Below, one piece after another: positions 2,565 through 48,818 of a DNA stretch of 64,000 nucleotides. The stretch is taken from positions 3,740-67,739 of the IMG/VR virus record IMGVR_UViG_3300044901_000083. One strand, written 5' to 3'. The stretch comes from a virus (lineage: Duplodnaviria > Caudoviricetes). Position numbers and translations under genes: made by a program. The notes under the pieces were generated by a model. It saw nothing but the letters and a program-made list of their open reading frames with translations. It made no database searches and was not told the origin of the DNA. Each line of letters opens with the position of its first letter. The first letter of the stretch is position 1.

Positions 2565-2580
2565 AGTGTGGCGTCACGAC
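2565..2580 (-). promoter_or_regulatory. Late-type promoter motif
   Basis: GTCGTGA-CGC-CACACT, 7 nt before ATG 2557, no SD. Confidence 0.7.
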
Positions 2581-2584
2581 CCGC

Positions 2585-2600
2585 GACGTGACGCTAGGCT
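2585..2600 (+). promoter_or_regulatory. Late-type promoter motif (divergent)
   Basis: GACGTGA-CGC-TAGGCT, 6 nt before ATG 2607, no SD. Confidence 0.7.
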
Positions 2601-2606
2601 CTCGGC

Positions 2607-3461
2607 ATGGCCGAATTCCGCATCTCGATCGACTTGGACGTTGTGCTCGACGCCGCGCACCAGGTGATCAACGAGACGGTGCTGCCGCGCCTGGCGCAGG
2701 CCGCGCGCGCGGTCGCCCAGCAGACGCAGGTGCGCTGGATGGAGTCGGTGGCTCACGCCAAGCTCTGGAGCGGCGAGAAGACCGCCTACATGGAGTCGAT
2801 TCAGCTCCAGCAGACGGGCCCATTCTCCTGGCTGGTCTGGAGCGACTACAAGCACGCCGAGGAGATCGAGACCGGCCGGCCGGCGCGCGACCTGAAGCGC
2901 ATGCTCGACACGAGCCTGAAAGTGCGCACCACCAAGGATGGGCGCCGCTTCCTGGTGATTCCGTTCCGCCACAACACCCCAGGCAACGAGGCTCACGCAC
3001 CGGCGATGCCGGAGCAGATCTACCAGGCGGCCTCGCGGCTCACCGCCAGCAAGGTGTTGAGCACCAGCACCAGGCCAAGCGGCGAGGTGACGGCGCTGAG
3101 CCCGATGGGCATGCGCCCGCTGAAGCAGCAGCGCCCGTTCGCATCGAACCCGAAGACGCGCGGCCCGTACCTGGTGGCGAAGCGAAACTACGAGTGGGGC
3201 GGACGGCTGCCGGCCGCCATATTGGGGCCAAACCCGCAGGGCAAGACGGATCGCTATGCCGGCATGGTGCGCTTCGACGCCAGTGCCGGCGGCAAGCGCT
3301 ACTCCACGTTCATGACTTTCCGCACGATGATGGAGGGCTCCAGCGGCTGGATCGTGCCGGCTCAGCCCGGGCAGCACATCGCCGAGAAGGTGGCGAACGA
3401 GATGCGTCCGCTGGCCGAGCAGGCCTTCACCGAAGCGGTGAAGCGCGACACGTCGCGCTAG
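2607..3461 (+). CDS. Probable neck/tail-completion protein, inverted relative to neighbours
   Basis: 284 aa; basic, YAEEIETG-like segment (KHAEEIETGRPARDLK), RFLVIPFRH, FMTFRTM; within neck genes. Confidence 0.5.
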   Translation: MAEFRISIDLDVVLDAAHQVINETVLPRLAQAARAVAQQTQVRWMESVAHAKLWSGEKTAYMESIQLQQTGPFSWLVWSDYKHAEEIETGRPARDLKRMLDTSLKVRTTKDGRRFLVIPFRHNTPGNEAHAPAMPEQIYQAASRLTASKVLSTSTRPSGEVTALSPMGMRPLKQQRPFASNPKTRGPYLVAKRNYEWGGRLPAAILGPNPQGKTDRYAGMVRFDASAGGKRYSTFMTFRTMMEGSSGWIVPAQPGQHIAEKVANEMRPLAEQAFTEAVKRDTSR

Positions 3462-4099
3462 ACCTTGCCCTGCCGGCCGTACAGGTCGAATTTGCGCAGC
3501 ACCACGCGGCGCGGCAACTGCGCTCCGGAGTGCATGTTCCGGTCGCTGGGGTATTGGCCCCAGCAGAAGTATTCGGCCATGCGCGTGCCGGTGATGGTGT
3601 AGGTGGCGCCAGCAGGCGGGTCATTGTCCGACCAGGTGAGCGTACCGTCGGCCGCGACATCTGGTATTCCACCATCCACGATCGCGCCGACGTCGTTCAG
3701 CCAGAAGACGCGCTCGACGCTCAGCACGGGCCCGTACAGCTTGTCGCCCTGACCGCGCACCAGCGTGTTCGAGAAAACGTCGGTGTTGTCGAGCGCGGTG
3801 ACACGATCGAACTGACCCATGCCATACAGCGGCGTGTCGCTGCCGATGGTGACCACCACGTCGCCGTTTTCCCAGAGGCCGAACTGCGCCCACTCGCGCT
3901 GCGTCTTGCTGCCGGCCATCCCTGCGACGCCGGCGACCGCCCCCACCCAGATGCGCCCGCGGCCGCCGCACTGCGGGCAACCCGGCTTGGAGGCGCCGCT
4001 GTGCGGCGAGATGCACGGACAGGCGTAGGACTTGCGCCACTCGTAGCGCTGCCCGATGTTCGAGAGCCAGCTGTTGAAGGCCGCCGGATTCAAGCGCAT
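3458..4099 (-). CDS. Probable head-closure/neck protein
   Basis: Real start MRLNPAAF at 4099 overlapping upstream stop; CPC...CPQCGGRG motif typical of SPO1-like neck proteins. Confidence 0.6.
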   Translation of the reverse strand: MRLNPAAFNSWLSNIGQRYEWRKSYACPCISPHSGASKPGCPQCGGRGRIWVGAVAGVAGMAGSKTQREWAQFGLWENGDVVVTIGSDTPLYGMGQFDRVTALDNTDVFSNTLVRGQGDKLYGPVLSVERVFWLNDVGAIVDGGIPDVAADGTLTWSDNDPPAGATYTITGTRMAEYFCWGQYPSDRNMHSGAQLPRRVVLRKFDLYGRQGKV

Positions 4100-5208
4100 C
4101 ACAGCACCCCGACGCGAATGCCATGGATGGCCGTCATCAGGCCGCCGTTGGCGCCCTTGGGCCCGTCGATGGTGCGGTCGATCGAGTCGTAATACTTCTC
4201 CATGTCGACCGACAGCGTTTGCGACAGGCCGTCGGCGCTGATCGAGCCGGACGACGGCAGGAACGCGTCGCCGAGGATGTCGAGCACCGCCTGCTTCATC
4301 ACCAGGTTCACCAGGTCGGGCCATTCCGTGGCGGCGTTCTGCAGGCCAGCCACATAGGTCGCCTGCATCATGAACGGGATCGTTCGGCCGCCGGCGATCG
4401 CCTGCGCGATGAGCGAGGCCAGCGGCACCGAGACGGTGACGGCCGACGGCACCAGCTGCACCGTACCGGCCTTCGCGTCGACGCGGATCCAGTCAGCCGG
4501 CACATCGAACAGGCCGGCGGCCGGCGCCGGGTAGGTGAAGCGCAGGCGGTCGACAGAGATCACCGGCTTGTTGCGCAGCTTGAACATGCCCCACGCGTCG
4601 CCCCAGAAGCCGTCGGCGCTGTAGTCGTAGCCTGGATCGAGCTCCCACGGCATGCCGTTGAGCGCGTCGATCTCCTCCTGCGACGGCTGCAGCGGGAAAT
4701 ACTTCGTCGGCTGGAACTTCACGCGCAGCCGGCGCTGCATCGCGGCCTCGGCCGCGATCAGCTTGTCCCAGATGTAGTCGTCGGAAATCTCGACCTTCGG
4801 CATGACGCCGACGGCGGTCAGCAGGAGCCGGTCGCGACGCATCTTCTGGGTGGCGGTGAAGCGGTTCGGGAACAGCGCCGAGCCGAGCGGGGATTGGTTC
4901 TCGTCGTCTTGCTTGACGAAGATCCGCACCGTGAACTGGTCCACGACACCTGCAAAGGATGTCCAGGACGCAACCACGGCGTACCACTGTCCTGGCGTGC
5001 CGCCGTCGATCGCCACGATGGCCTTCGTGCCGTCCACCGAGTGCGATGGCGTGATGACCGATCCGGACGGATACACCGACCACGAGCAATCGACGAGCGT
5101 GTCGCCATCAGCGAGCAGCGGCTTCAGGTCGAAGGAGTAGTTCAGCCGCGCGTCCTTGTCCTTCTCGCGCCAGACCACTTCCTCGTCCACGTTGATCAGC
5201 TCGTCCAA
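4099..5208 (-). CDS. Probable head-tail adaptor protein
   Basis: TTG start after AGGAG; C-terminal LPSSGSISADGLSQTLS and FMMQATYVAG resemble adaptor proteins. Confidence 0.55.
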   Translation of the reverse strand: MDELINVDEEVVWREKDKDARLNYSFDLKPLLADGDTLVDCSWSVYPSGSVITPSHSVDGTKAIVAIDGGTPGQWYAVVASWTSFAGVVDQFTVRIFVKQDDENQSPLGSALFPNRFTATQKMRRDRLLLTAVGVMPKVEISDDYIWDKLIAAEAAMQRRLRVKFQPTKYFPLQPSQEEIDALNGMPWELDPGYDYSADGFWGDAWGMFKLRNKPVISVDRLRFTYPAPAAGLFDVPADWIRVDAKAGTVQLVPSAVTVSVPLASLIAQAIAGGRTIPFMMQATYVAGLQNAATEWPDLVNLVMKQAVLDILGDAFLPSSGSISADGLSQTLSVDMEKYYDSIDRTIDGPKGANGGLMTAIHGIRVGVL

Positions 5209-5239
5209 GATGCTCTCCTGATGATGGTCGATTCTTCCG

Positions 5240-7675: not shown

Positions 7676-7702
7676 TTCAGTCCGCGTTCGTCAGCGGCTG
7701 CG

Positions 7703-8167: not shown

Positions 8168-8193
8168 GATGAACCTTTCTGTGCTGGTGGATG

Positions 8194-11503: not shown

Positions 11504-11575
11504 GGCAGAACCCTTTCCTGGTTGAATAGAGAAGACCGGCAGGCGCTCAACAGTTGGTCCAGCGGTCCCATGGCG

Positions 11576-11591
11576 ACTATGGCGTCACGAC
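11576..11591 (-). promoter_or_regulatory. Late-type promoter motif
   Basis: GTCGTGA-CGC-CATAGT directly after a terminator; leadered transcript to 11503. Confidence 0.65.
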
Positions 11592-11620
11592 AAAACAAAA
11601 CCGCCGCACGAGGCGGCGGT
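11591..11620 (-). terminator. Intrinsic terminator after capsid operon
   Basis: ACCGCCGC-CTCGT-GCGGCGGT followed by TTTGTTTTG on minus strand. Confidence 0.7.
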
Positions 11621-11646
11621 CTGATTCGCGAACACTGGAGTGCAGT

Positions 11647-11883: not shown

Positions 11884-11914
11884 GATCGATCTCTTTCAGG
11901 AGTTGCGGGGTGGA

Positions 11915-13900: not shown

Positions 13901-14554
13901 TCAGGCGGCGGGCACGATCTTCTGGATCAGCGCCGGTTCGATCGCCCAGCCGTTGCGCAGGCACACGTCGACCGTGTTCAGTTCGCGGCCGGTGAGCTTG
14001 CCGGCCTCGAATGCGGAGTTGGCTTTCAGCATGAACTCCTGCGGAGTGATGCCGTCCTGCTGGCCGCCCTTGGCGAGCGTGGTGTCGGTCTGCTTCTCGG
14101 TGACGACCACCGTGGCCTTGCGACCGCGGCCTTCGCCGCCGAGCTTCTTGACCTGCTCGGTGAGCGACTTCAGCAGGTCGCCCTGCTGCTTCAGGATGGC
14201 CGACTGGCTCTTGATCAGCGCCACCGCGCCGCCCAGCGCCTTCGCCATCGTGCCTTCGGTGGCGTCCAGGCGATCGGTCAGGGCCTTCACCAGGGCGGTG
14301 CCGTCCTCGGCTTCCACCTCGGTGCCGTCGGCGAGCTTCACCTTGAAGGACTTCGCCATCGGCTCGTCCTTGTCTTCGCCGCCCTTGTCGTCGGCGTCCG
14401 CGTTTTCCTGGCTCTTGTCGTCGCCGTCCGCAGCAGCGGCTTGGATCTTTTCGTCATCCTCGCCATCCGCCGTCGGGAGCGCTTTCGCCAGGGCCTCGTT
14501 GTCCGCCGTCAGACCTTCGATGTCCTTCAGCAGATTGTCGAATTGACCACTCAT
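13901..14554 (-). CDS. Scaffold protein
   Basis: Acidic/helical 217 aa between protease and capsid; seven K-A/K-S sites. Confidence 0.7.
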   Translation of the reverse strand: MSGQFDNLLKDIEGLTADNEALAKALPTADGEDDEKIQAAAADGDDKSQENADADDKGGEDKDEPMAKSFKVKLADGTEVEAEDGTALVKALTDRLDATEGTMAKALGGAVALIKSQSAILKQQGDLLKSLTEQVKKLGGEGRGRKATVVVTEKQTDTTLAKGGQQDGITPQEFMLKANSAFEAGKLTGRELNTVDVCLRNGWAIEPALIQKIVPAA

Positions 14555-15441: not shown

Positions 15442-15457
15442 AGCATGTCGTCACGAC
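15442..15457 (-). promoter_or_regulatory. Late-type promoter motif
   Basis: GTCGTGA-CGA-CATGCT, 6 nt before ATG 15435. Confidence 0.7.
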
Positions 15458-15482: not shown

Positions 15483-15506
15483 AAAAAAGGCCGCTCGAAA
15501 GCGGCC
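15483..15506 (-). terminator. Intrinsic terminator
   Basis: GGCCGC-TTTCGA-GCGGCC followed by TTTTTT on minus strand. Confidence 0.75.
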
Positions 15507-19100: not shown

Positions 19101-20755
19101 TGCAGTCCGATCGCGCGCACCTGGGTGATGGCCGATTCCATGCTGGCCTTGCCCAGGCTGACCTGGAAAGACTCTTTACGCCCCTGCTTTAGCGCCACCA
19201 CCAACGCGGCATTGGCCTCCATCTCGCCCAGCGCCTGGCCGAGGATCTTCTGTGCGTCGCCGACGGCGCGGCGCCGGCGCGCGTTGAGCTCCTGCGCCAC
19301 CTGCAAGTCGGCGCCGGTGGCCGCCTCGCCGAGCTCTATTTCCTTCGCAGCGTCCATCAGCTCGCGCGCCTGGCCCAGCGCCTCGGCGCTGGTGTCCATG
19401 TAGTGGTGCAGGTGGAACTCCTGCACTCCCTCTGCGATGCGCTCCACCTGATCGGGCAGGTCGCCGTGGATGCGCCGCGCCAGCACCTGCGCCGCGCCGG
19501 CGATGCCCAGCACGTCCACCACCGAGCGGTCGACCAGGGCGTCGCCGCCGACGGCCAGCGCCAAGGAGTTGATGGAGTTGTAGGCGCCGACCCCCACGTG
19601 CTTCCCCAAGGTCTCGCTCGGGTCGCCGCCGGCGATGCGCTGCAGCTCGGACAAGAACGCGCGGGTCTGCACCGTGCGCAGGTCGTTGTTCAGTTCCTCG
19701 GCGATCTTGGCGTCCAGCTTCTCGTCCGGCTCGGCGGTGTACTCCAGCACGTAGGCCTTCGGCTCCGCGGTGGATTTCTCGATCTCCGCGGCCGCGGCGC
19801 GCGCCTTCTGCTGGATCTGCTGCAGCTGCTTATGCGCCTTCAGCAGCTCGACCGCCTTCTTGGCGTCGGCCAGGTCGGCGGCCGCCGCCGGCGCGGCCGG
19901 CTCGCGCACGCCCTGCAGCTCCTGCTTCACAAGCTTCGCGGTCTCGCCGCGCTCGACGGCCGCCTTGCGCTGGCCGGGCGTCATCTGCTCGCGCTGCGCA
20001 GCCTTCGCCTGCTCGGCCTCGGCCTTGATCTCGTCGGCTGTCGCGCCGGCGGCTTCGGCTCGCTTCTTGTAGTCGGCCGCGAAGCCCAGGCCGCCCGGGT
20101 TGTCCTGGATCGGCGCCAGATCCTGCACCGACAGCGTGGCGTCGTCCTTGGCATCCAGCGGCACCTCTCCGATGCCGGCTTCCATGCGCGCGGCGTGATC
20201 GGTCACCAGGCGCTGGCGTTGCAGCTCGACCGCCTCGTGCGCGCGCTGCAGCAGCGTGCGGTGGTGCTTCTGGCGCAGCTTTGCGACGGCCGCCTCCGAC
20301 AGGTGCTCGTAGTCGGCCTCCGGAAACTCCAGCGCGCTCGGATCCCAGCCCATGGTTCGCGCCACCGTCTCGACGAACTGGCGCTCATGTGCGCGCTGCT
20401 GCTGGCGCAGGCTCTCCCGGGCCTTGTTCTTCGACTCCAGGATGCCCGCCTCTTTGTCGCGCTGGCGCTGCTCCTTCGCGGCCTCGGCCTTGGCCTTCTT
20501 GCGCACCTCGGCCTCGCGCTTGTACTCGCTCTCTTTGCGGACGCCGCGCAGCTTCAGGTAGTTGAGCTTGCCGCCGGCGCCGCCGATCACGTGCGCCGTG
20601 CCGTCAGGGTTCGGCTGTATCAGCACCGGCTGCCCCTCGGTGCCGGGTCCGTTCGGGTGCACGGTGATCCAACGCGCGCCCTCGGGGATCTTCGAGGCCT
20701 TGAGGAGATCCGACGGCTTGAGGAACAGGACGGGGCGGTCTGCCGGCAGCTTCAT
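16178..20755 (-). CDS. Large SNF2-family helicase/ATPase, probable internal head protein
   Basis: AFGTGSGKT, TVDESQ, ILVASDAGATGMNLQ, QRRGRIFR. Confidence 0.85.
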   Translation of the reverse strand: MKLPADRPVLFLKPSDLLKASKIPEGARWITVHPNGPGTEGQPVLIQPNPDGTAHVIGGAGGKLNYLKLRGVRKESEYKREAEVRKKAKAEAAKEQRQRDKEAGILESKNKARESLRQQQRAHERQFVETVARTMGWDPSALEFPEADYEHLSEAAVAKLRQKHHRTLLQRAHEAVELQRQRLVTDHAARMEAGIGEVPLDAKDDATLSVQDLAPIQDNPGGLGFAADYKKRAEAAGATADEIKAEAEQAKAAQREQMTPGQRKAAVERGETAKLVKQELQGVREPAAPAAAADLADAKKAVELLKAHKQLQQIQQKARAAAAEIEKSTAEPKAYVLEYTAEPDEKLDAKIAEELNNDLRTVQTRAFLSELQRIAGGDPSETLGKHVGVGAYNSINSLALAVGGDALVDRSVVDVLGIAGAAQVLARRIHGDLPDQVERIAEGVQEFHLHHYMDTSAEALGQARELMDAAKEIELGEAATGADLQVAQELNARRRRAVGDAQKILGQALGEMEANAALVVALKQGRKESFQVSLGKASMESAITQVRAIGLQRGDYTIEQVAGDTFLTVNAEGLDRLAKPIARADIEQVQRNLAIIRGDHDEDGWLPQGVARRPDLVMDVKPGVAPRLAEPFQPGDNLEQALRDYIGGRAADGDAPGDIVADIQSADFFQRVGFDRAESYRQALDAVAPLKGEDGKMQRAEALAEHFNQLADEFVQRRHGGARAPLHRQQFEVNDKAVDALHRALAEHPDGVAAYKQIGELTHEDQRALREHFYQHIANESPEAGALRRELEQHQAAEPAAETTDMFGDTVPNPEHGEWRARRDELAGQVNAASLDWSKYTAAMGGHERAYEAVQDLIKSKVGKAFVEHHNRLKPDAPLKVGKTVIRNNLRHLDATDPAARERREQQHRALVDSLRERADGRYASGSVSEKLDAAREQREAFEQAQMGFFSAEEAPQAVGADKPIELSGDERHTIGHIAERQIAGMMGKVGANFKPGKPLRLWEPTMSGGKNAARQRLVKLVDANKRVVAAFGTGSGKTLLQMAAFTHLHEQGKAKRGLFLVPSVVQGQFGGEALRYLEPGKFSWHCEPGASREERIAAYKDPAKHFAVMTHQSFRDDMMHLGAKHAGISEQEMADRVSAMRDDERKAWMGEQLQREGISFDYLTVDESQNVLNRAGKENSGLANVVDALSHHTPNYLLASGDPVKNDASEVFDLLRKMDPARYNDRAAFMRRYGADTLAAKDALKREMARHVYPSKIDPDVRADRKESKLPLSAGQRQALGELDRNFAAARMARMQGKVAVDAMKAISPGSFDGVPADQHEAVAKDLQKNLGILKSAAVRRVINEHPDNPVLDDIAKHAAERKGKPGVVFAHSLRQVQTIAERLKKEGHRVVVITGADSAKEKERKRLMFRPEKGEAEADILVASDAGATGMNLQRGQWLYQADTPDTAMTHAQRRGRIFRTGQKNDVELIDAVPDHPEIHKARDRLQKKYGLRDLMTSPMEGLDDTGVAYYLKQRQVANADLF

Positions 20756-20761: not shown

Positions 20762-20777
20762 AGTGTCGGGTCACGAC
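20762..20777 (-). promoter_or_regulatory. Late-type promoter motif
   Basis: GTCGTGA-CCC-GACACT, 6 nt before ATG 20755. Confidence 0.7.
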
Positions 20778-20780: not shown

Positions 20781-21161
20781 TCAGCGATCAGCCCACGTTG
20801 GTGGTCGGGCGCTCGGTCGGCTTATCCTTGTTTGCGGCCGCCACAGGCGCACGTACTCGCCGGCCTTGCGGGTTGCTTCCGCGTCGGCTGGCTTCGGCAC
20901 GCCGCGCGCAGGGGTCACCTCGTGGTGATCGAACTCCATCTCACCGTGCTCGTCGTGGCGCACCACGGACTTGCCGTTGCGCTCGCCGACGAACTTGCCT
21001 AGCGCCTTTTTGCCCGGCTTCTTCGGGTGCGGGAAGAACACATGAGCGCCCGCCTTGTGCTTGGCGCCTGGCCGTCGGTCGTCGTGCGGCTTGACCGTCG
21101 TCCCGTCCTTGCGGGTGTAGCCCTCGACGTGCGCCTTCAGGAACAGGACGATCTTGCTCAT
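20781..21161 (-). CDS. Small basic probable head protein
   Basis: Start MSKIVLFLKAHVEGYTRKDGTTVKPH at 21161. Confidence 0.65.
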   Translation of the reverse strand: MSKIVLFLKAHVEGYTRKDGTTVKPHDDRRPGAKHKAGAHVFFPHPKKPGKKALGKFVGERNGKSVVRHDEHGEMEFDHHEVTPARGVPKPADAEATRKAGEYVRLWRPQTRISRPSARPPTWADR

Positions 21162-21167: not shown

Positions 21168-21182
21168 ATTGTCCATCACGAC
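21168..21182 (-). promoter_or_regulatory. Late-type promoter motif (2-nt spacer)
   Basis: GTCGTGA-TG-GACAAT, 6 nt before ATG 21161. Confidence 0.6.
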
Positions 21183-27479: not shown

Positions 27480-27495
27480 ATCATTGCGTCACGAT
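27480..27495 (-). promoter_or_regulatory. Late-type promoter motif
   Basis: ATCGTGA-CGC-AATGAT then ~29 nt hairpin leader to ATG 27450. Confidence 0.5.
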
Positions 27496-27559: not shown

Positions 27560-28435
27560 ATGGCGCACACCATGTCGCTCTCAGATTCCACGTACAGGCA
27601 CAAGGCCAGCGAAACAGAAGTTTCGCTAGTCAATGACGTCAATATATTCTCGATCAAATCCCTGAAGGGTGAGGTGGAGCACGAACTAAAAGGCGTTCAC
27701 AGCTTCGCTATTTCTCCGAATCTCCAGACGACAACTCCGGCGTCAGAAAACGGCGGTCGATTCAATGATATTGAGTGGGGTCCAAACCGATTCACGTATC
27801 TACCGCCCGGCGTCAAATTGAAGGCCGTTAGCCTTGTGGAAGCCGACACAGTTTATTTTGTTCTGCCTGACCGGATATTTGGGCCGGCCGCATTCGAGAC
27901 CGTGAACGTGGAGAAGCTGGAAAGAAAATGGGTCTATAACGTAGATGACCCGGTGGCATTAGATTTGATGAATGCCGCCTCGAAAGTCGCCAAAGACGAC
28001 GGCGCCAAGAACTGGCCTCTGCTGGTGGAGTCGATCGGAACCGCTTTGTCCGTGCGCGCCATGCAAGCCATGGGCGCGCAGCCGCTGCGGGGTGACGTCC
28101 CGTATCCGAGCGGCCTGTCCAGCGAGCGACTGCGCCGCGTTGTTGACTACGTAGAGGCCAACCTGCATCGCGCGATCCTGCTCACCGAGCTCGCGGAAAT
28201 CGCGGCCCTGAGCCCGTTCCACTTCTCCCGCGCGTTCCGCAAGGCCATAGGCCGGACGCCGGTGCGCTACGTGTGGTCGCGCCGTGTCGAGCGATCGAAG
28301 CGCCTGCTGCGTGATCGCGTCCTGCCGTTGGCCGCGATCGCGTATGACTGCGGCTTCTCCAGCCAGAGCCACTTCACGACGGTGTTCAAGCGGGAGACCG
28401 GTGTCACGCCGCTGCGGTATCGGGCCGGGCTTTGA
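27560..28435 (+). CDS. AraC-family transcriptional regulator
   Basis: RLRRVVDYVEANL..LAEIAALSPFHFSRAFRKAIG..IAYDCGFSSQSHFTTVFKRETGVTP. Confidence 0.9.
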   Translation: MAHTMSLSDSTYRHKASETEVSLVNDVNIFSIKSLKGEVEHELKGVHSFAISPNLQTTTPASENGGRFNDIEWGPNRFTYLPPGVKLKAVSLVEADTVYFVLPDRIFGPAAFETVNVEKLERKWVYNVDDPVALDLMNAASKVAKDDGAKNWPLLVESIGTALSVRAMQAMGAQPLRGDVPYPSGLSSERLRRVVDYVEANLHRAILLTELAEIAALSPFHFSRAFRKAIGRTPVRYVWSRRVERSKRLLRDRVLPLAAIAYDCGFSSQSHFTTVFKRETGVTPLRYRAGL

Positions 28436-38801: not shown

Positions 38802-38950
38802 TACTGCTCCTGGTACTGCCTACAACGCCTCCGATTCTTCGATCACGACGGATGTCCACCCCCAACGCTTGGGGTGCGGAAATACCGGCTGTTACTCTTT
38901 TTTGATGCAGACTTGCCGCACTACACCGCATCAGCGGGAAGGAGCGGGCA

Positions 38951-39199
38951 ATGCAACCCAGACCGATGTACGTGCTGCACCCGGGCGTCGTGCGCGACTC
39001 CGAGAGCGGCCAGTGCCACTACGTCAGCGCCTCGCGCCTGGCCGACCTCTACCGGATCCCGATCGACCGCTGGCAGGTGTACGACTCGCGCGAGCACCAT
39101 TGCGCGCCGCCGACGGGCTGGGTCTACGTGCACCTGCACCCGCGCGAGGACGCCATCTACCGGCTGCCAGCTGATCCTGAATCTGTCGCGCGGGCCTGA
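38951..39199 (+). CDS. Hypothetical protein
   Basis: 82 aa; YVLHPG.V.S..DG..HYV..L..LY pattern seen in phage proteins. Confidence 0.55.
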   Translation: MQPRPMYVLHPGVVRDSESGQCHYVSASRLADLYRIPIDRWQVYDSREHHCAPPTGWVYVHLHPREDAIYRLPADPESVARA

Positions 39200-39342
39200 A
39201 AAGCGAAGCCCCGGCGCGCACTTGGCGGACCGGGGCTCGTCGGCGGGCGCTCGTCGGGCGCACGGGGTGCCGATCAGGTACGTTTCATCGCATCTCCATC
39301 GGTGGGTTGCTCGGGCGTCTTGCGTGCACTGCAGAGGCCTTC

Positions 39343-39358
39343 ATCGTGCGATCACGAC
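39343..39358 (-). promoter_or_regulatory. Late-type promoter motif without clear ORF
   Basis: GTCGTGA-TCG-CACGAT overlapping terminase stop. Confidence 0.5.
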
Positions 39359-41442
39359 GCCACGAACAGCACGCAGCCAGGTGAGTCCGCCCGCACCTTG
39401 ATGTCGCCGCGCTCGCCGCAGGTGCCTGTCTCGGGATCGAACGCGGTGCAGCGGCCGCACACGTCGCCCTCAGGGATCTCCGAGCGCATCAGCTGCTTCA
39501 GCGGCTCGGGGATCACTGGGTTCTTCAGCACGGCGTCCTTCTCCATGTCCTTGGCCTCCGGCAGGATGAACGTGCTCGTGCCGTGCGCGCGGCTCCAGGC
39601 CACGTCGCACAGCATGTTCGCGTAGCTGAAGTGCGGGTCGATGCCGACCTTCTTGACGCTGCGCTTGTACTGGTTGGTTTCCTCGTCCTTCTCGGCAACG
39701 AGGGCTGTCTTGGTGAAGTGGTGGAACGCGATCGGCAGCACCGCCTTGAGCTCGCGCACGCCCTTCTCCAGCACCTCCTGCACCAGGCCCTGCGGGTCTG
39801 GGAACAAGCACACCGGCTTGTCGGCCGTGAAGCGCGCCATCGAGACCTGCATGCACTTGTACTGGTCCATGCGCAGCGTCCAGCGGTCGCGCTCCTCCTC
39901 GCTGGTGCGGCGCTCGCTCACGTCGAGCTTCGGCGCGTCGCCCCAGTGGACCATCCCCTCTTTGATCGCGCCGAAGCTGTCGCAGATGAACACGCGGCCA
40001 GGATGCCGGCCTGAGAAGCGCTTGGCGTCGTTGTAGTTGGGGTTGATCTCGACAACGCAGCACTGCACGCCGTACTGCTCCATGAGCTCGCTCGATCGCA
40101 TGAACGGGTCTTCGGAGAAGGTCATCTCGACGTGGATCACGGCCTGGCGGCCGTCAGCCAGCCGCTCCTTGATCACGTGGACGTTGAAGTTGCCCATCTG
40201 GTCGATGCCCATGAACGTGCCCTTGGCGCGCGTCTTCCAGACGACGCCGGCGGCGCGGCCGGCCTCGACGCAGCGGTTCAGGTGCTCCATCGTGACGGGC
40301 ACCTGCGACGGGTCGAGGTAAGGCTTGCCGAGCTTCCGGTTGAAGAAGTTCTTCATGTCCGTCGCCATGCGGTACGCGTCGAGGATTTCCCCGGGCGCGA
40401 TCGTGGGCGACAGGAACTGTGGGAAGTGCAGCGAGCGGATGCGTAGCGGCCGCTCCTTCTTGGGGATGCTCAGGTCGATCGGCGGGTCGGCCGCCGGGTT
40501 CTCGGCGCGCCAGTCGCCGTGCTGCGAGTCATCGATCACGTGCCCGTTGGGGCACACGTAGCGGTACTGGCCGCTCACCAGGCTGATGCAGTCGGGGAAG
40601 TAGTCGTCCAGCGGCTTCTCGCTGCCGCAGGTCTTGCAGCGCGTGAAGAACCGGTATTGCGCGCCGCGCTTGTACCAGTGGTGGATGTCGGAGTCGGGCC
40701 AGTTGGCCGTGCTGCCCATCTGCATGAAGCGGATCGCCGAAGCGCTCAGGCGCTCGTAGGTCTTCTCGATCTGCTCCAGCGTCATCTCCTGCACCTCGTC
40801 GAAGGACAGCACGTCCATCGGGATCGACTCGGTGGTGGCCCGGCCGCTGGTCCAGCTGAAGATGAACAGCGCCTGGTCGATGCGCCGTCGGTTGACGTTG
40901 CCCTCGCCGGCGACGCGGCCCTTGCCATCAGCCGACTCCTGCGTCATCAGCGCGTGCACCTTAGGCACGCTGCGCACCATCGGCATGAAGCGCTCGCTCG
41001 ACTTGATGCCGGCCAGCAGCATGTCGGGTAGGAACATGCCGATCGTCGCGGGCCCGAAGCGCAGGCCGAGGTAGATCGCGGCCAGCATCTCGAACACGGT
41101 GAAGCCGACCTGCGCGCACTTCATCATCACCAGCACCAGGCGGAAGGCCTCGTCCTCGGTGCTGGGGATCTGGTCGTAGACCCAGGCCATGGCCGGTCTG
41201 TCGTCGAGGGTGAATGGCTTGCCGTCGACCTTCAGGCCGTCGACCGCCAGCTGCTCGACCCACTGGCGGAACGTGGTGCCGGGCTCAATCACGCGGCGCT
41301 TCTCGCTGACCACGAACCCGGTCTTGGCCTCCAGGGCGGCGATCGCCATGCCGAGGCCAGCCTGCCAGTCCACCTTCGGCTTCGGGTTTCCGTGGCCGCC
41401 TCCGTGCGGCCGGTAGCCGCTGCCGTTCTTCGCGAACGCCAC
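39352..41442 (-). CDS. Terminase large subunit (lambda gpA-like)
   Basis: MMKCAQVGFT, VLSFDEVQ, MGSTANW, CKTCG/CPNGH Zn motif, MGIDQ. Confidence 0.85.
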   Translation of the reverse strand: MAFAKNGSGYRPHGGGHGNPKPKVDWQAGLGMAIAALEAKTGFVVSEKRRVIEPGTTFRQWVEQLAVDGLKVDGKPFTLDDRPAMAWVYDQIPSTEDEAFRLVLVMMKCAQVGFTVFEMLAAIYLGLRFGPATIGMFLPDMLLAGIKSSERFMPMVRSVPKVHALMTQESADGKGRVAGEGNVNRRRIDQALFIFSWTSGRATTESIPMDVLSFDEVQEMTLEQIEKTYERLSASAIRFMQMGSTANWPDSDIHHWYKRGAQYRFFTRCKTCGSEKPLDDYFPDCISLVSGQYRYVCPNGHVIDDSQHGDWRAENPAADPPIDLSIPKKERPLRIRSLHFPQFLSPTIAPGEILDAYRMATDMKNFFNRKLGKPYLDPSQVPVTMEHLNRCVEAGRAAGVVWKTRAKGTFMGIDQMGNFNVHVIKERLADGRQAVIHVEMTFSEDPFMRSSELMEQYGVQCCVVEINPNYNDAKRFSGRHPGRVFICDSFGAIKEGMVHWGDAPKLDVSERRTSEEERDRWTLRMDQYKCMQVSMARFTADKPVCLFPDPQGLVQEVLEKGVRELKAVLPIAFHHFTKTALVAEKDEETNQYKRSVKKVGIDPHFSYANMLCDVAWSRAHGTSTFILPEAKDMEKDAVLKNPVIPEPLKQLMRSEIPEGDVCGRCTAFDPETGTCGERGDIKVRADSPGCVLFVAS

Positions 41443-41443
41443 G

Positions 41444-42097
41444 CTACACCCGCATGTCCATCGTCATGCCGGTGCGCGCGTTTAGCTCGGCCAGGCGCAC
41501 CATGATCCGGCGCGCGGTCTCCGGCGACTCGCGCGCGATCTCCTGCACAACCACCTCGTAGAAGTCCTGCATCGTGCGCAGGTTCCACACCTCGCCCATG
41601 GCGCGCAGCGAGGTGTCGATCACGTTCAGCCGGCGCTGCATCTGCTTCTCGAACAGCAGCGGGTTCTTGATCCGCTCGCCGGTCACCTCGCCGGTCTCGG
41701 GATCCAGCACTTCGGCCACCGAGTGCTTGCGCAGCATGTGCGCGTCGGCCTGGATGGCGTGCAGCTCGGCGAGGATGTCGAGGTTGCGGAGGCCGCGCTC
41801 GCCGCTCTTGGCGACGTAGGCTGGCGATGGTGCCACCGGCAGGTGCTGGCCGACATCGGACTCCAGCACCTCCTCGATGCGCGCCTTCGCGGCCACCAGC
41901 GTCGGCTTCGGCGGCGCGGCCTTCTTCACCGCGCGGATCCAGGTCCAAACGGTGTGCTCGCCGACGCCGCGCTCCATGTACTTCTGGATGATCGGCTTCC
42001 AGTTCTTGGCGCCGTACAGTGACAGGTGCTCGGAGATGTCTTTCTCGGCTTGCGGTCGAAGCGGGTGCTCGCGTCCGTGGCGTGGCTTATCGTCCAT
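41444..42097 (-). CDS. Probable terminase small subunit
   Basis: 217 aa, N-terminal HTH-like, directly upstream of large subunit. Confidence 0.55.
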   Translation of the reverse strand: MDDKPRHGREHPLRPQAEKDISEHLSLYGAKNWKPIIQKYMERGVGEHTVWTWIRAVKKAAPPKPTLVAAKARIEEVLESDVGQHLPVAPSPAYVAKSGERGLRNLDILAELHAIQADAHMLRKHSVAEVLDPETGEVTGERIKNPLLFEKQMQRRLNVIDTSLRAMGEVWNLRTMQDFYEVVVQEIARESPETARRIMVRLAELNARTGMTMDMRV

Positions 42098-42103
42098 GCC
42101 GCG

Positions 42104-42119
42104 AGGCTACTGTCACGAT
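42104..42119 (-). promoter_or_regulatory. Late-type promoter motif
   Basis: ATCGTGA-CAG-TAGCCT, 6 nt before ATG 42097. Confidence 0.7.
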
Positions 42120-43827: not shown

Positions 43828-43885
43828 TCCTTCTCCAAAGCGCCCGGCGCGGTGCCGGGCGCGGGTTGCGATCGACGCGGCTGCG

Positions 43886-44251: not shown

Positions 44252-44358
44252 ATTTGCTCCTGATGCGCCCTACCGGCGCCCGAAACGCGGGCCACGTCCT
44301 GCACAGCAAGCATTGGCGCGGCCCGCGCCGCCAACGCAGCAGACTTAGGGTAAGTTGG

Positions 44359-45165: not shown

Positions 45166-45215
45166 GGGGTCTCCAGTTGATCGGCGCAGCCGGCGCCGGC
45201 GGTTGATCAAATTTG

Positions 45216-45235
45216 ATTATACGTGCTGGCGAACA
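45216..45235 (-). promoter_or_regulatory. TGTTCG-N5-ACG-[-10] promoter with overlapping TGATCA operator
   Basis: TGTTCG-CCAGC-ACG-TATAAT; operator 45204-45219. Confidence 0.6.
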
Positions 45236-45236
45236 G

Positions 45237-45563
45237 TCAGAACGGCAGCAGCCGGCCGCGGTAGTGGAAGGGGTACTGGTGGCCGGCGCGCGCCAGCGCG
45301 ATGCGGATGCGCCATGGCGCGCTGCTCGTGCGCTCGCGCTCATGCCGACGCATGACCAGCTTGGTGCGCGCGCGGCGGATCGCGTACGCGTTCGACATGC
45401 TGCAGTCGCGCTTCGGTGTCTTCGCGCGCCAGATGGCGAGGAAGATCTTGCGCGGCAGCTTTCCGATGCGTGCGGTGCGCGCATCGGTGCGCTTCAGCTT
45501 CAGCTCGCGGCCGGCGTTGCTGCTGGGGTAGGACGGGGTGAGGTGGCGGTAGAAGTTCGCCAT
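45237..45563 (-). CDS. Basic hypothetical protein
   Basis: Start MANFY; Arg-rich. Confidence 0.45.
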   Translation of the reverse strand: MANFYRHLTPSYPSSNAGRELKLKRTDARTARIGKLPRKIFLAIWRAKTPKRDCSMSNAYAIRRARTKLVMRRHERERTSSAPWRIRIALARAGHQYPFHYRGRLLPF

Positions 45564-45585
45564 GGTCAGGCCTCGGCCTTGCGGG

Positions 45586-45927
45586 TCATTTGACACCTCG
45601 GCACTTGTCGGCCTGATCGCGCACGCTGGTGATCAGCGCCCATGCCGCATCAGCAGTGCTGACCCCGGTAATCCGTCTCTGCGTGCTGCCGCGCAGGCTC
45701 TCGAAGTAGATCGTGCAGAGTCTGCCGCGCTCGTTGCACTCGGCCGCAACCTCGATCATCAGGTTGAGGTTCAGCAGCGCCTGCGAGCCCGGTACCTGCC
45801 ACCAGCACGGCGCGGATCCGGCGGCTTGCAGCACGGGCGGAGGAGGTGTGCCTGCGCGCGCCGGCGCCAGGAACGCGGCCTCCAGCACCAGCAGCAGGGC
45901 GATGATGAGGAATGTGCGGAGGGTCAT
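45586..45927 (-). CDS. Secreted hypothetical protein
   Basis: MTLRTFLIIALLLVLEAAFLAPARA signal peptide. Confidence 0.55.
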   Translation of the reverse strand: MTLRTFLIIALLLVLEAAFLAPARAGTPPPPVLQAAGSAPCWWQVPGSQALLNLNLMIEVAAECNERGRLCTIYFESLRGSTQRRITGVSTADAAWALITSVRDQADKCRGVK

Positions 45928-46139
45928 GACCGATTCTCCTCGGCCGGCTTCCAGTCGCCGTCCGCGTCGAGGTGCGCCGGCGGCCAGCCGCGAGCGAGAA
46001 CCTTGATCGCGCGCAGCGTGCGGATGACCAGGCCCAGGGCCCTCATGGCAAGCAGGTACACGCCCCACAGCAGCCACAGCGCGCACCACGTCAGGAACGG
46101 GTGCGCGTCGGCGAACGCGTTGATGTCGAGGTGGATCAT
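45924..46139 (-). CDS. Small membrane protein
   Basis: One TM then RGWPPAHLDADGD. Confidence 0.55.
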   Translation of the reverse strand: MIHLDINAFADAHPFLTWCALWLLWGVYLLAMRALGLVIRTLRAIKVLARGWPPAHLDADGDWKPAEENRS

Positions 46140-46372
46140 TGCTGCGCCTCCGCAGCGGCCGCTTCACGCTCCTGCGCGATCAGCGCCTTGCGCGCCTTCC
46201 ACACGTCCCAGGCCTGCCACAGCCACATCAGAAAGAGCGCGCCGTTGGACACAGCCATCAGCAGCGAAGGCTCTTTAGCGGGCCGGCCCGTGATGGCGAG
46301 CAGCGTCTCTCCGAGAAGGATGAGCGCCAGCAGCAAGCTGTCCACCACCAAGATCGAGAGGTACTTGCGCAT
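46136..46372 (-). CDS. Small membrane protein
   Basis: Two TM segments. Confidence 0.5.
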   Translation of the reverse strand: MRKYLSILVVDSLLLALILLGETLLAITGRPAKEPSLLMAVSNGALFLMWLWQAWDVWKARKALIAQEREAAAAEAQQ

Positions 46373-46374
46373 GG

Positions 46375-46881
46375 TCACACCCGCTCCGCGGCCCGATACA
46401 GATCTCCGCACGGCGCGCGGCACTCGCGGCTGTCGGCGCAGTGGTCGGTGGAGCCGACGGCGGCCTGCGGGCAGGGGCGCGGCATTGCACCGTAGTCGTC
46501 GGCGATCATCGTGCTGGAGAAGATCTTGTCGCCAGCCTTCGGATCGATTCCGTAACCCATCGGCTTCGCCTCGCCAGTGACGTACGGCCGCAGCTCACCC
46601 CACGGATACGGCACGCTGGCAGGCTGCAGCTCGCCATCCTTCACCGCCAGCTTCGGCCAGGCCTCGCGCCGGTCCTCGTCGTTCATGGTCTCCAACTGGT
46701 CCCAGTAGTCCGAGTTGGTGTCGCCGTCGGTGTCGCAGTACGGCGGCGGGTAGCCGCGCGCGCGGATGGTGAGGTGGCGTTCGCGGATGGTGAGCCAGTC
46801 CGAGAGCTTGCTGAAGCCGAACCAGGCGATGGCGACGGCGGCCACGCAGATGCTGAAAACGATGCTGTCGAGCTCGTACAC
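46375..46881 (-). CDS. Membrane protein
   Basis: N-terminal TM then RGYPPPYCDTDGD, like 45924-46139. Confidence 0.5.
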   Translation of the reverse strand: MYELDSIVFSICVAAVAIAWFGFSKLSDWLTIRERHLTIRARGYPPPYCDTDGDTNSDYWDQLETMNDEDRREAWPKLAVKDGELQPASVPYPWGELRPYVTGEAKPMGYGIDPKAGDKIFSSTMIADDYGAMPRPCPQAAVGSTDHCADSRECRAPCGDLYRAAERV

Positions 46882-47073
46882 GATGTCTCCAGGTGCTGCC
46901 GGGAAGCGCCCGGCGCGCGTTACTCGAATTTGATCACGATTTGCGCGGCTGCGGCGCAATCGGCTGATCTTTTTTCGGCAATGGCAACAGCGGAAGGCGC
47001 TTGCAGCTGTCGGCCAGGTGCCCACGGCCGCCGCAGCGGCAGCACCAGTCGGCCGAGTGGTCGCGGCTCATGG

Positions 47074-47436
47074 CTACCTGCCGCCGATGCGCTCCAGCTC
47101 CTGGCGCGCCATCAGCATGGCCTTGCGCTCGGCCAGCGTGGGCCTGCGCTCCTTCGCCGGCGGCGGCACGTCGGGGTTCTGCCACGGCACCGGGTTCCAG
47201 CCGTAGATCGCGGTCGGCTTGCCGCGGCCAATGCGCCAATCGCACACGTAGACCAGGCCATGGTCGTGCATGCGATCCATGTAGCGATAGGCCACGTTGT
47301 CGTTCGTCATATCCATGACTTCCGCCAGCTCAGGCACGGAGCGCCGCTGCTTCATCATGAACGCCACCGCCTCCAGTAGGCGATCGATGTTCTTCCCGTT
47401 GTGCTTGGCCTGGTTGGCCCCGTGGTAGCTAGGCAT
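47074..47436 (-). CDS. HTH DNA-binding protein
   Basis: RSVPELAEVMDMTNDNVAYRYMDRM. Confidence 0.5.
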   Translation of the reverse strand: MPSYHGANQAKHNGKNIDRLLEAVAFMMKQRRSVPELAEVMDMTNDNVAYRYMDRMHDHGLVYVCDWRIGRGKPTAIYGWNPVPWQNPDVPPPAKERRPTLAERKAMLMARQELERIGGR

Positions 47437-47989
47437 GCCCCTTCTCCTCTGCGTCGCGGCAAGTCCGCGCGAATTGCTCAACGTCGCCCTTCCAGAGGCC
47501 GAAGCGCTCGACGGTCTTGTTGAACTCCTCGATGTCGTGCGCGACCAGCATGTAGATCGGCTCGCCGGTCAGCCGGTTGATGCGCGGCTCGCCATGGCGA
47601 TCGAGCGCCTGGCGCACGTGCATCAGCTCGTGGTGCACCAGCGCCTCGCGCTGCAGGTCGGTGGCGTCGGCCCACCACTGCGCGTCGACCGTGACCACGT
47701 AGTCCGGCAGAAAGCCGTACTGCTTGATCAGCAGGTGCTCGAACAGCTCGCGCAGGCGGCCCTGCACCTGCGGCTCGTGGACCATCGCGAGCACCTGGCG
47801 CCCGGCCTGCAGGTGTTCGGTGTGCCGCATCAGCCAGAGGAACTTGATGTCGTTCTCGACCAGGTGCTTGAGCTCGTCGAGCTGGCCCATCAGGCGCGCT
47901 GCCACCACAGCAGGGCTCCACGTGCCGCCGTCGGCCGCCTCGTAGGCGTCCAGCGCGTGCTCTTCGGCTTCCTCTTGCGCGGCGCTCAT
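47429..47989 (-). CDS. Putative phage metallopeptidase
   Basis: REALVHHELMH (HExxH) and downstream HDIEEF. Confidence 0.7.
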   Translation of the reverse strand: MSAAQEEAEEHALDAYEAADGGTWSPAVVAARLMGQLDELKHLVENDIKFLWLMRHTEHLQAGRQVLAMVHEPQVQGRLRELFEHLLIKQYGFLPDYVVTVDAQWWADATDLQREALVHHELMHVRQALDRHGEPRINRLTGEPIYMLVAHDIEEFNKTVERFGLWKGDVEQFARTCRDAEEKGHA

Positions 47990-48357
47990 CAGCGCGCACG
48001 GGCCGGCAGGCCCATGTCCTCGATCAGGTCGTCGGCGCGACGGCGCGGCACAGGCCCGGGCGCGGCGGCCGCCGGCGGCGGATTGCAACCGAGCTCGGCC
48101 AGGCTGCTCACCAGGTCGGCGTGGCTGGTGGTGTCGAGTTGCGGCGCGCGGTCGACCATCTCGACGACTGGCACGCCATTCACGATGGAGCGACTTGGGT
48201 ACCAGCGCTCCACCACCGGCTGCACCGGCCGATCCGCGCAGAACCCCGCGGCGCGCAGCTGCTCGTCCAGGCGCAGCTGGCGGCGCAGGCGCTGCAGCTC
48301 GTCGAGCTCGGCGCCGGCCACGCGCCGCTTGATCCAGGCCTTCAGGCGCGTGAGCAT
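47989..48357 (-). CDS. Hypothetical protein
   Basis: Start MLTRLK after AAGGAGG. Confidence 0.5.
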   Translation of the reverse strand: MLTRLKAWIKRRVAGAELDELQRLRRQLRLDEQLRAAGFCADRPVQPVVERWYPSRSIVNGVPVVEMVDRAPQLDTTSHADLVSSLAELGCNPPPAAAAPGPVPRRRADDLIEDMGLPARAR

Positions 48358-48451
48358 GGCGCCTCCTTCCGTTGGTTGGCGGCCGACGCCAGCAGCGCCG
48401 CCGCGGTCTCGAATCGTCCGGTCCACGCGCACCAGCAGGCGAGCCACCAGG

Positions 48452-48796
48452 TCACGGGGTGCATGGCGCGGGCTCCGGTTGCGTGATGCGGATGCCGCGC
48501 GGCAGCGAAGCGAGCCAGGTTGCGACGAAGCGCATGCGACGGCCGTGGATGCCTGGCGTACGCGGCGCTGGCACCTCGCGCACGCGCCCTTCGCACCAGT
48601 CGATGCCCAGCTGCGTGAGCGTGTAAGTCGCCGGCTGGTTGCCGCCTATGCGGCCGTTGCTGGTCGCGAGACCGTACAGGCGCAGGCTGCAGAGGCGGCC
48701 GGAGTCCAGGTCCGGCTCCTCGTCCATGATGCGCTCCACCGTCGCTGTGCCGCCCATCCGGTACAGCACTCGGGCCGCGAGTTTCCAACTGCTCAT
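48452..48796 (-). CDS. Winged-helix-like protein
   Basis: 114 aa; YTLTQLG; leaderless-type promoter. Confidence 0.55.
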   Translation of the reverse strand: MSSWKLAARVLYRMGGTATVERIMDEEPDLDSGRLCSLRLYGLATSNGRIGGNQPATYTLTQLGIDWCEGRVREVPAPRTPGIHGRRMRFVATWLASLPRGIRITQPEPAPCTP

Positions 48797-48802
48797 GACC
48801 CG

Positions 48803-48818
48803 ATCGTGGTTTCACGAC
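48803..48818 (-). promoter_or_regulatory. Late-type promoter motif
   Basis: GTCGTGA-AAC-CACGAT, 6 nt before ATG 48796. Confidence 0.7.

Follow-up and report, generated by a model that had tools for sequence, protein, structure and literature searches.

In phage P1, late promoters are activated by Lpa together with the host protein SspA. In T4, late activation, which involves the sigma factor gp55, gp33 and the sliding clamp gp45, is coupled to this clamp. In P2 and P4, small zinc-binding phage activators, Ogr and delta, switch on late operons; Ogr sites are TGT-N12-ACA dyads near -55 at promoters that keep a sigma70 core, and the gene of the P4 activator delta is itself controlled by a delta/Ogr-dependent promoter. 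The closest experimental precedent for the element treated here is provided by the leaderless late promoters of Thermus phage Lalka27a. Sixteen late promoters have been predicted in this phage and start sites were obtained by small RNA sequencing (sRNA-seq) for half of them; they combine a TAGGGT -10 element with a conserved C at -25, have no -35 box, and most of the late transcripts begin at the initiator codon (bioRxiv 10.64898/2026.04.20.719267). Lalka27a encodes neither a sigma factor nor an RNA polymerase, and a phage factor altering the specificity of the host polymerase has been inferred by the authors (bioRxiv 10.64898/2026.04.20.719267). Here, we describe a signal of 16 bases, consisting of GTCGTGAY (Y, pyrimidine), 2-3 further bases and a -10-like hexamer, that fronts virion and packaging genes in a stretch of viral DNA of 64,000 nucleotides (nt), i.e., positions 3740-67739 of the linear IMG/VR contig IMGVR_UViG_3300044901_000083 (hereafter the window). 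This signal is very likely the core of a -35-less promoter class specific to a phage family, and ten of its window copies would give rise to leaderless mRNAs.

The contig (67.7 kb, 67% guanine plus cytosine, GC) stems from an uncultured phage and belongs to a family of widespread but barely studied phages and prophages of about 90 kb that reside in alpha-, beta- and gammaproteobacteria. The cultured phages most closely related to it comprise Bordetella phage vB_BbrM_PHB04 (94 kb), the Pseudomonas putida phages Dolphis and Jeremy, the Pseudomonas syringae phage Touem01, Aeromonas phage ST4, Enterobacter phage phiT5282EW, Escherichia coli phage ECML-606-1 and Yersinia phage fHe-Yen8-01, with Morganella phage Mecenats66 at a greater distance. 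After these close relatives, the next-closest portal proteins are those of Thermus Lalka-type phages and SPO1-like phages. The gene order of the virion region is the same in the window and in PHB04. The genomes of PHB04, Dolphis and ECML-606-1 are complete, and the completeness of the contig is estimated at ~73%. For the window, every CGTGA was listed with its context and a gene map was built from codon usage.

In total, the window contains 15 good copies of (G)TCGTGA(Y)-N2-3-nAnnnT. A preliminary description of the motif had put the number at 14; the copies it referred to are real, but the count is to be raised by one. In nine copies the hexamer ends exactly 6 nt before an ATG and in one copy 7 nt before it, and the nine start codons concerned (2607, 15435, 20755, 21161, 30772, 31717, 36474, 42097 and 48796), the wider gap at 2557, the 2-nt spacer at 21161 and the CCCAAT hexamer at 31717 were all recovered as described. 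The copies are as follows (aa, amino acids):

2565..2580, minus strand: GTCGTGAC-GC-CACACT, 7 nt before ATG 2557 of a gene for a 286-aa tail-region protein, homologue of PHB04 gp014; one half of a divergent pair.
2585..2600, plus strand: (GA)CGTGAC-GC-TAGGCT, 6 nt before ATG 2607 of a gene for a 284-aa protein (phrog_16819); the other half of the divergent pair.
11576..11591, minus strand: GTCGTGAC-GC-CATAGT, just after a terminator (11598-11622); leader of ~70 nt with Shine-Dalgarno sequence to ATG 11503.
15442..15457, minus strand: GTCGTGAC-GA-CATGCT, 6 nt before ATG 15435 of the head maturation protease gene, with a terminator (15489-15506) upstream.
20762..20777, minus strand: GTCGTGAC-CC-GACACT, 6 nt before ATG 20755 of a gene for a 1525-aa SNF2/SF2 helicase comparable to the large virion helicase of Lalka27a.
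21168..21182, minus strand: GTCGTGA-TG-GACAAT, spacer one base shorter, 6 nt before ATG 21161 of a gene for a 126-aa protein.
27480..27495, minus strand: ATCGTGAC-GC-AATGAT, leader of ~23 nt to ATG 27450 of a gene for a 1981-aa methyltransferase/SNF2 protein, an arrangement shared with PHB04.
30779..30794, minus strand: GTCGTGAC-CG-CACCAT, 6 nt before ATG 30772 of a gene for a 385-aa conserved head-region protein without family match.
30989..31004, minus strand: GTCGTGAT-CG-CACACT, an orphan at the 3' end of the phosphatase gene, with ~190 nt lacking a convincing open reading frame (ORF) before the next promoter.
31724..31739, minus strand: GTCGTGAC-GC-CCCAAT, with C for A at -11, 6 nt before ATG 31717 of a NinI-like Ser/Thr phosphatase gene.
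36481..36496, minus strand: GTCGTGAC-GC-CACCAT, 6 nt before ATG 36474 of the portal gene.
38834..38849, minus strand: GTCGTGAT-CG-AAGAAT, leader of ~26 nt with Shine-Dalgarno sequence to GTG 38801 of a gene for a 461-aa GHL15-like protein.
39343..39358, minus strand: GTCGTGAT-CG-CACGAT, an orphan at the 3' end of the large terminase gene, with a hairpin and T-run ~150 nt downstream.
42104..42119, minus strand: ATCGTGAC-AG-TAGCCT, 6 nt before ATG 42097 of a gene for a 217-aa protein upstream of the large terminase gene (39352-41442).
48803..48818, minus strand: GTCGTGAA-AC-CACGAT, 6 nt before ATG 48796 of a gene for a 114-aa protein without assigned function.

Weaker variants without T at -21 are present at 50912 (minus strand), 54914 (plus) and 60805 (plus). 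Among the gene names given in the preliminary description, portal (by Pfam), protease (phrog_1028) and SNF2 helicase hold on checking, but for the proposed terminase small subunit (41444-42097) and MuF protein (29615-30772) no family was matched in our searches; the 217-aa protein starting at 42097 is a putative small terminase by its gene position only. The 126-aa protein starting at 21161 shares its N-terminus, MSKIVLFL, with PHB04 gp049, which has the same promoter at a different place in the genome.

To assess enrichment of the motif, the 67.7-kb contig was shuffled 200 times with its dinucleotides preserved. The contig contains TCGTGA-N4-A-N3-T 13 times, compared with 1.03 times in the shuffles (maximum 5), and a looser pattern that includes the start codon, CGTGA-N3-5-A-N3-T-N6-7-ATG, 10 times versus 0.42 (maximum 3); for the loosest pattern, a separate shuffle gave 5.4 versus 16 observed. 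The proposed concentration of the motif in front of starts is borne out over the whole contig, with TCGTGA-N4-A-N3-T followed by N6-ATG in six cases versus 0.01 in the shuffles. A similar excess was found in PHB04, Dolphis and ECML-606-1. When bare GTCGTGA heptamers were collected from four genomes with the hexamer left unconstrained, 43 of the 72 combined A at -11 with T at -7, as against the 3-5% to be expected from base composition, so that the coupling of box and hexamer does not originate from the search pattern.

A position matrix was derived from 63 sites in six genomes, G at -22 not being required for inclusion. It features G at -22 (53 of 63), TCGTGA at -21 to -16, a pyrimidine at -15 (58 of 63) and a hexamer with the consensus CAnaAT, in which A at -11 and T at -7 are nearly invariant, C is favoured at -12 and A or C at -8. 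Around the presumed start, the bases seen most often are C at -1 and A, T and G at +1 to +3, with C at -1 plus A at +1 as the most frequent combination. Positions -41 to -23 are flat, the base at -25 is unconserved (A11 C20 G17 T15), and a longer matrix contains at most 0.16 bit at any position from -82 to -23, i.e., neither a -35 box nor another upstream element, in agreement with the -35-less character claimed earlier. An extended -10 TG at -15/-14 occurs in none of 13 sites in the contig, in none of 17 in PHB04 and in 14 of 34 sites in Dolphis, ECML-606-1, ST4 and the Yersinia phage. At these 14 sites, in relatives infecting gammaproteobacteria, TCGTGA-TG-n-hexamer constitutes a true extended -10, a lineage difference in the way the core promoter is reinforced.

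Several observations indicate that the motif is a promoter. All good copies are oriented toward the following gene. The divergent starts at 2557 (minus strand) and 2607 (plus strand) enclose an intergenic region of 49 bp (2558-2606) that holds two copies, one per strand, and nothing else, so that each of the two genes needs a promoter in that gap; the same divergent tail-gene pair with the motif is found in PHB04, Dolphis, ECML-606-1 and ST4. The copies at 11589 and 15455 are immediately preceded by convincing intrinsic terminators (11598-11622 and 15489-15506, respectively), and T-runs precede motif copies in relatives as well. Canonical -35/-10 promoters number two in 60 kb of the window versus ~4 expected, and neither coincides with a motif copy. 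Finally, box and hexamer are a fixed distance apart, with a variation of at most one base, whereas the stretch between hexamer and start codon measures anything from 6 to ~70 nt when copies or orthologues are compared, which argues against a signal in translation or RNA processing.

With regard to mechanism, the -10-like hexamer would be read by the host's sigma70-type holoenzyme, to which the signature of A at -11 and T at -7 points, and GTCGTGAY at -22 to -15 would replace the -35 box and be read by a phage-encoded specificity factor, which could act as an activator, remodel the sigma factor or itself be a highly diverged sigma. We infer such an additional factor because the hexamers are too weak and the sites in the contig have no TG extension. 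As the promoters head virion, packaging and virion-cargo operons, they would be active in the middle or late phase of infection. Start sites, timing, the need for a factor and the identity of this factor are predictions, and dependence on an activator as well as late timing, in particular, are suggested by the weak hexamers, the gene content and the analogy to the Lalka27a promoters with their mapped start sites.

The geometry of the copies bears directly on translation. If the hexamer occupies -12 to -7, transcription beginning at the customary distance of 7 nt after its T would start on the A of the ATG, giving a leaderless mRNA that would be translated via its 5'-terminal AUG. This start is predicted from geometry, and the earlier placement of +1 on the first base of the start codon gains support from the exclusive use of ATG and from conserved N-termini. 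All ten leaderless-type starts are ATG and at most one of them has a four-base Shine-Dalgarno match, in line with the lack of Shine-Dalgarno sequences noted before. Among the other 73 genes, 44 start with ATG, 23 with GTG and 5 with TTG (one gene is cut off by the end of the window), and a Shine-Dalgarno match is present in 59; for ATG use, the difference between leaderless-type and other genes yields p = 0.013 in a Fisher test. The contrast is inflated, since starts of leadered genes were partly picked by their Shine-Dalgarno match. Exclusive AUG at the leaderless-type starts fits the requirement for a 5'-terminal AUG in leaderless translation for which Brock et al. (2008) are cited in PMC5312081.

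The ATGs defined by the motif coincide with conserved N-termini. In front of the portal gene, the motif is present in 34 of 37 IMG/VR relatives, with a gap of 6 nt in 27, 7 nt in three, 5 nt in one and 9 nt in one, the sequences of hexamer and discriminator varying freely. In three relatives of lower GC content, the same portal N-terminus is preceded by a leader of 28-29 nt with a Shine-Dalgarno sequence. For the protease orthologue, the spacing is of the leaderless type in PHB04, Dolphis and ST4, and a leader is present in ECML-606-1 and the Yersinia phage. Across ~45 records, 166 strict sites were collected and ATG follows at N6 or N7 in 57% of them, with a weak trend for the leaderless share to rise with GC content (62% at GC of at least 0.60, 44% below 0.575). 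About half of the promoters are predicted to produce leaderless mRNAs.

In several public records the annotated start lies downstream of the leaderless ATG, while the longer frame is open and matches the N-termini of orthologues. This applies to the portal of ST4, annotated at 19940 with the motif-defined ATG at 19850 (locus L005), and to three genes of Dolphis with motif-defined versus annotated starts at 14320/14482 (gp15), 23688/23748 (gp25) and 66716/66941 (gp82). A further peculiarity concerns the protease promoter of ECML-606-1 (L004:22901-22950) and fHe-Yen8-01 (L006:3726-3775). Here, transcription is predicted to start on the A of a conserved mini-ORF of two codons, ATG TTT TGA, with a Shine-Dalgarno sequence and the genuine ATG ~17 nt further on. 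The mini-ORF may be the relic of a leaderless start or a start-stop device for ribosome loading.

The motif is found in phages of Bordetella, Pseudomonas, Aeromonas, Escherichia and Yersinia over a GC range of 47-67% and is kept in PHB04, Dolphis, ST4, ECML-606-1, fHe-Yen8-01 and ~40 IMG/VR relatives, its conserved positions being those before the portal gene, the protease gene and the divergent tail-gene pair. In the genome of Microvirga lupini (4.9 Mb), 11 of 30 matches reside within a single 63-kb prophage belonging to the contig family, all on one strand and adjoining a homologue of the 171-aa gene discussed below, at a density ~45-fold that of the remaining chromosome. The latter contains 19 matches in 4.8 Mb, from which it follows that the host makes no wide use of this promoter class. 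Like the motif itself, its geometry, its enrichment and its conservation, the restriction to phage DNA is demonstrated by the sequences. In the literature on PHB04, Dolphis, their relatives and the motif, we found no description of GTCGTGA promoters.

Compared with Lalka27a, the phage studied here encodes a related portal protein (35% identity) as well as a large virion helicase and a DarB-like protein, the Lalka27a counterpart of the 1981-aa protein having been termed DarB-like (bioRxiv 10.64898/2026.04.20.719267). Both phages possess many late promoters, including a divergent pair, with a class-specific sequence and without -35 box. On the other hand, the elements differ in sequence, with TAGGGT plus C at -25 in Lalka27a and CAnaAT plus GTCGTGAY at -22 to -15, without conservation at -25, in the contig family. 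Moreover, start sites have been mapped for Lalka27a and are predicted from sequence here, and the host of the former is Thermus whereas those of the contig family are proteobacteria. For Thermus hosts, leaderless mRNAs are described as the norm (PMC12340547).

With the Lpa-dependent promoters of P1, the element shares a -10 hexamer and a short box, the "-22 region", in place of the -35 element, at the head of morphogenesis and packaging operons (annotated LPpac and LPhot), and both phage types have DarB-like virion proteins. The boxes of P1, ATGTGACTT and AAGTTACTT, are separated from the hexamer by 4-9 nt as opposed to 2-3 nt for GTCGTGAY in the contig, and LPpac and LPhot, the only two examined, have leaders. 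The promoters of the contig resemble the P1 Lpa architecture but are no member of that class. The T4 late promoters likewise lack a -35 box and are read by means of a small set of phage proteins, but consist only of TATAAATA at -10. The preliminary description had drawn analogies to both P1 Lpa and P2 Ogr promoters. The first is apt with respect to architecture; the second is poor, as a TGT-N12-ACA dyad near -55 is present in none of 53 sites, nothing is conserved upstream of -23 and neither an Ogr_Delta domain nor an Ogr/Delta homologue was found. Promoters of the Mu C type differ in that no activator of the Mor/C family (PF08765) is encoded in the three genomes screened (contig, PHB04 and Dolphis). 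New in the present case are a conserved box that spans -22 to -15, a systematic, predicted leaderless layout in phages of proteobacteria and a candidate for the reader protein, while -35-less phage promoters coupled to leaderless mRNAs were known.

Among other explanations, the one that survives best is that the host sigma70 holoenzyme alone reads the element, with GTCGTGAY as an unusual spacer or extended -10 and without any phage factor; we judge this improbable. It would account for the sigma70-type A at -11 and T at -7 and for the occurrence of the motif in phages of alpha-, beta- and gammaproteobacterial hosts, among which sigma70 is conserved. The TG at -15/-14 fits in the relatives from gammaproteobacteria (14 of 34 sites) but is absent from all 30 sites of the contig and PHB04, where the hexamers are very weak (e.g., CACCAT, GACACT and CCCAAT) and not assisted by a -35 box. 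To our knowledge, there is no base-specific contact of RNA polymerase that reads -22 to -16, and a signal read by sigma70 alone is difficult to reconcile with only 19 matches in the 4.8 Mb of Microvirga chromosome outside the prophage.

It is less probable still that GTCGTGAY serves as an operator for a repressor or for another DNA-binding function, with a negative or timing role over ordinary -10-only promoters. The two copies of the divergent pair do form an inverted repeat (GCGTCACG...CGTGACGC), and in front of divergent homologues of the 171-aa gene the motif is framed by CGTGACCACG inverted repeats. Most copies, however, are single and asymmetric with a hexamer distance that varies by at most one base, fifteen operators all in sense orientation would be unusual, and without the box no usable promoter remains, there being no -35 element and, in the contig, no TG. 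That the motif acts in RNA, as a processing site or translation signal in long polycistronic transcripts and not as a promoter, has hardly any probability left, for although some copies lie 20-30 nt from the stop of the upstream gene without intervening terminator and Dolphis encodes a MazEF pair, MazF having been proposed as a maker of leaderless mRNAs, the distance between motif and hexamer is fixed while that to the start varies from 6 to ~70 nt, the divergent genes 49 bp apart each need a promoter, terminators stand directly upstream of two copies and the hexamer carries a sigma-type A/T signature.

We retain, as the probable one, the reading of the element as a -35-less promoter that is read with the help of a phage factor and frequently yields leaderless mRNAs. 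The following points weigh against it. Leaderless mRNAs are generally poorly translated in E. coli. The 5' ends are predicted, the contrast with the other genes is inflated as stated above, and two window copies (31002 and 39356) are without an obvious gene.

To find proteins that could read the box, phage genomes were screened for known regulators. Sigma70 regions 2 and 4 (PF04542, PF08281) are absent from the three phage genomes screened, a search that a very divergent sigma factor like T4 gp55 would escape. For Ogr_Delta (PF04606), the contig, PHB04 and Dolphis were negative as well. A tblastn search with P1 Lpa against the contig, which is only ~73% complete, PHB04, Dolphis and ECML-606-1 yielded no homologue (best E 1.9). 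A hidden phage RNA polymerase is unlikely, as PHB04, Dolphis and ECML-606-1 have no unexplained large protein in common. An AraC/XylS-type regulator (27560-28435, plus strand; HTH_18, E 1e-23) is encoded in an AT-richer island opposite to the flanking late operons and is conserved in PHB04, Dolphis and ST4. It was rejected as the general factor since it is missing from ECML-606-1, which retains the motif. The non-structural genes common to PHB04, Dolphis and ECML-606-1 comprise replication and recombination genes and two adjacent genes for small zinc proteins, which are represented in the window by the following:

49920..50435, minus strand: gene for a 171-aa cysteine-rich (zinc) protein, the candidate factor; homologue of PHB04 gp072; leader with Shine-Dalgarno sequence.
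49642..49926, minus strand: gene for a protein of 94 aa resembling a double zinc ribbon, with PHB04 gp071 as homologue; begins with a GTG that overlaps the stop codon of the 171-aa gene.

Eight cysteines and one histidine are invariant in the 171-aa protein, which also contains a conserved basic helix, SCYNREREx3GRNAKG. Behind a disordered linker its C-terminus reads QLALW, with QLxLW, QLxLF or QGxLF in homologues. Its AlphaFold model has a pLDDT (predicted local distance difference test) of 87. The 94-aa gene is translationally coupled to it and conserved alongside it in all four complete genomes, and its product gives weak zinc-ribbon hints only. Among cultured phages, the 171-aa protein is present in exactly the nine with a close portal. 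Its gene does not have a GTCGTGA promoter of its own, as is expected for an upstream regulator, and the same is true of 12 close family members, none of which has a GTCGTGA-type promoter upstream of the homologue.

Beyond the phages, homologues of the 171-aa protein occur in 46 bacterial genomes. For 30 divergent homologues (<45% identity), a GTCGTGA-type promoter is found within 800 nt upstream in sense orientation in 16 cases and on the opposite strand in seven, as compared with two and one in a downstream control at the same loci. This arrangement, reminiscent of that of P4 delta, is the best evidence that would link the 171-aa protein to the motif. The likeness to the P2 Ogr/P4 delta systems extends to the small size and zinc-binding nature of the putative activator. 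In Pseudomonas sp. GV085, the region around the homologue has no virion genes and contains CRISPR-Cas and transporter genes; it shows no recurrent variant motif, GTCGTGA being present only as single copies in front of the homologue and of the primase gene. The copy in front of the homologue (L103:3380-3500; G002:C1:513380-513500, minus strand) lies between the arms of an inverted repeat, CGTGACCACG ... CGTGGTCACG, and CGTGACCACG repeats of a similar kind are present at other Pseudomonas and Methylobacterium loci (L067, L075 and L079). This arrangement may be an operator containing the same CGTGAC core.

Taken together, the evidence for the 171-aa/94-aa zinc-protein pair as the promoter-specificity factor is circumstantial, and we put forward this assignment tentatively, at somewhat less than an even chance. 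A number of findings speak against it. The 171-aa protein has no family in Pfam, PHROGs or NCBIfam and no sequence match in the PDB, its model finds no match with Foldseek and at best Z 2.6 in a wide VIA-align search, and the gene adjoins an origin-like iteron region, which is compatible with a replication protein. The QLxL(W/F) tail resembles the beta-clamp-binding pentapeptide, which would fit a replication protein equally well. In addition, Mecenats66 encodes a homologue (36.6% identity), yet contains only two TCGTGA copies, with off-consensus hexamers or spacing, in 41 kb. In further searches with the 171-aa protein, the ESM Atlas contributed only unnamed viral clusters, no homologue was found in Thermus phages, and similarity to gp55 or gp33 was not detected in Pfam, PHROG, PDB sequence or fold searches. 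A predicted complex of the 171-aa protein with E. coli DnaN scored 0.60, the best control reaching 0.01; the tool grades this as weak support, and the score may go back to clamp-peptide complexes of solved structure. A clamp link as in T4 is speculative and would rest on analogy.

A more far-reaching proposal, which we consider rather unlikely, is that the zinc-protein pair would be a new kind of specificity factor that directs host RNA polymerase to promoters made up of GTCGTGAY and a -10 element and is tethered to the host beta sliding clamp by its C-terminal QLxL(W/F) tail, so that leaderless late transcription would be coupled to replication in the manner of gp55, gp33 and gp45 of T4. Diverged copies would then regulate themselves, or be transactivated, in small elements other than phages across alpha-, beta- and gammaproteobacteria.

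Three stretches of the window without convincing coding potential deserve mention. Upstream of the 171-aa gene, 575 bp of non-coding DNA (50436-51010) contain numerous GGTTACC/GGTAACC iterons oriented both ways, ~60 nt of alternating purines and pyrimidines (GTGCGTGTGTGCGC...ATATATAT) and a terminator-like hairpin (50989-51006); this region looks like a replication origin. The sequences that follow the orphan copies at 31002 and 39356, i.e., 30795-30985 and 39185-39335 (both minus strand), are GC-rich and strongly folding and have no ORF, the second ending in a hairpin with T-run, and may represent small phage RNAs made from the same promoter class; the copy at 39343..39358 may accordingly be a short-RNA promoter or else a spurious site. 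Finally, ~1.2 kb between a kinase-like gene and the phosphatase promoter (31740-32980, minus strand) are devoid of a convincing ORF, and Rfam at gathering thresholds identified only a tRNA there (32847-32920).

For the phage family, the signal yields an operon map as well as corrected start codons; the leaderless ATG is overlooked in several public annotations. In proteobacterial hosts, leaderless mRNAs are regarded as rare and inefficient, and the promoters described here predict that abundant virion proteins would be systematically translated from such mRNAs in these very hosts. The switching between leaderless and leadered forms of the same gene among related phages constitutes a natural experiment on the trade-off in translation. 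Furthermore, the element points to an undiscovered protein that would redirect RNA polymerase to a sequence at -22 to -15 and for which a concrete candidate is available, and with PHB04, Dolphis, ECML-606-1 and ST4 as cultured members of the family these ideas are directly testable.

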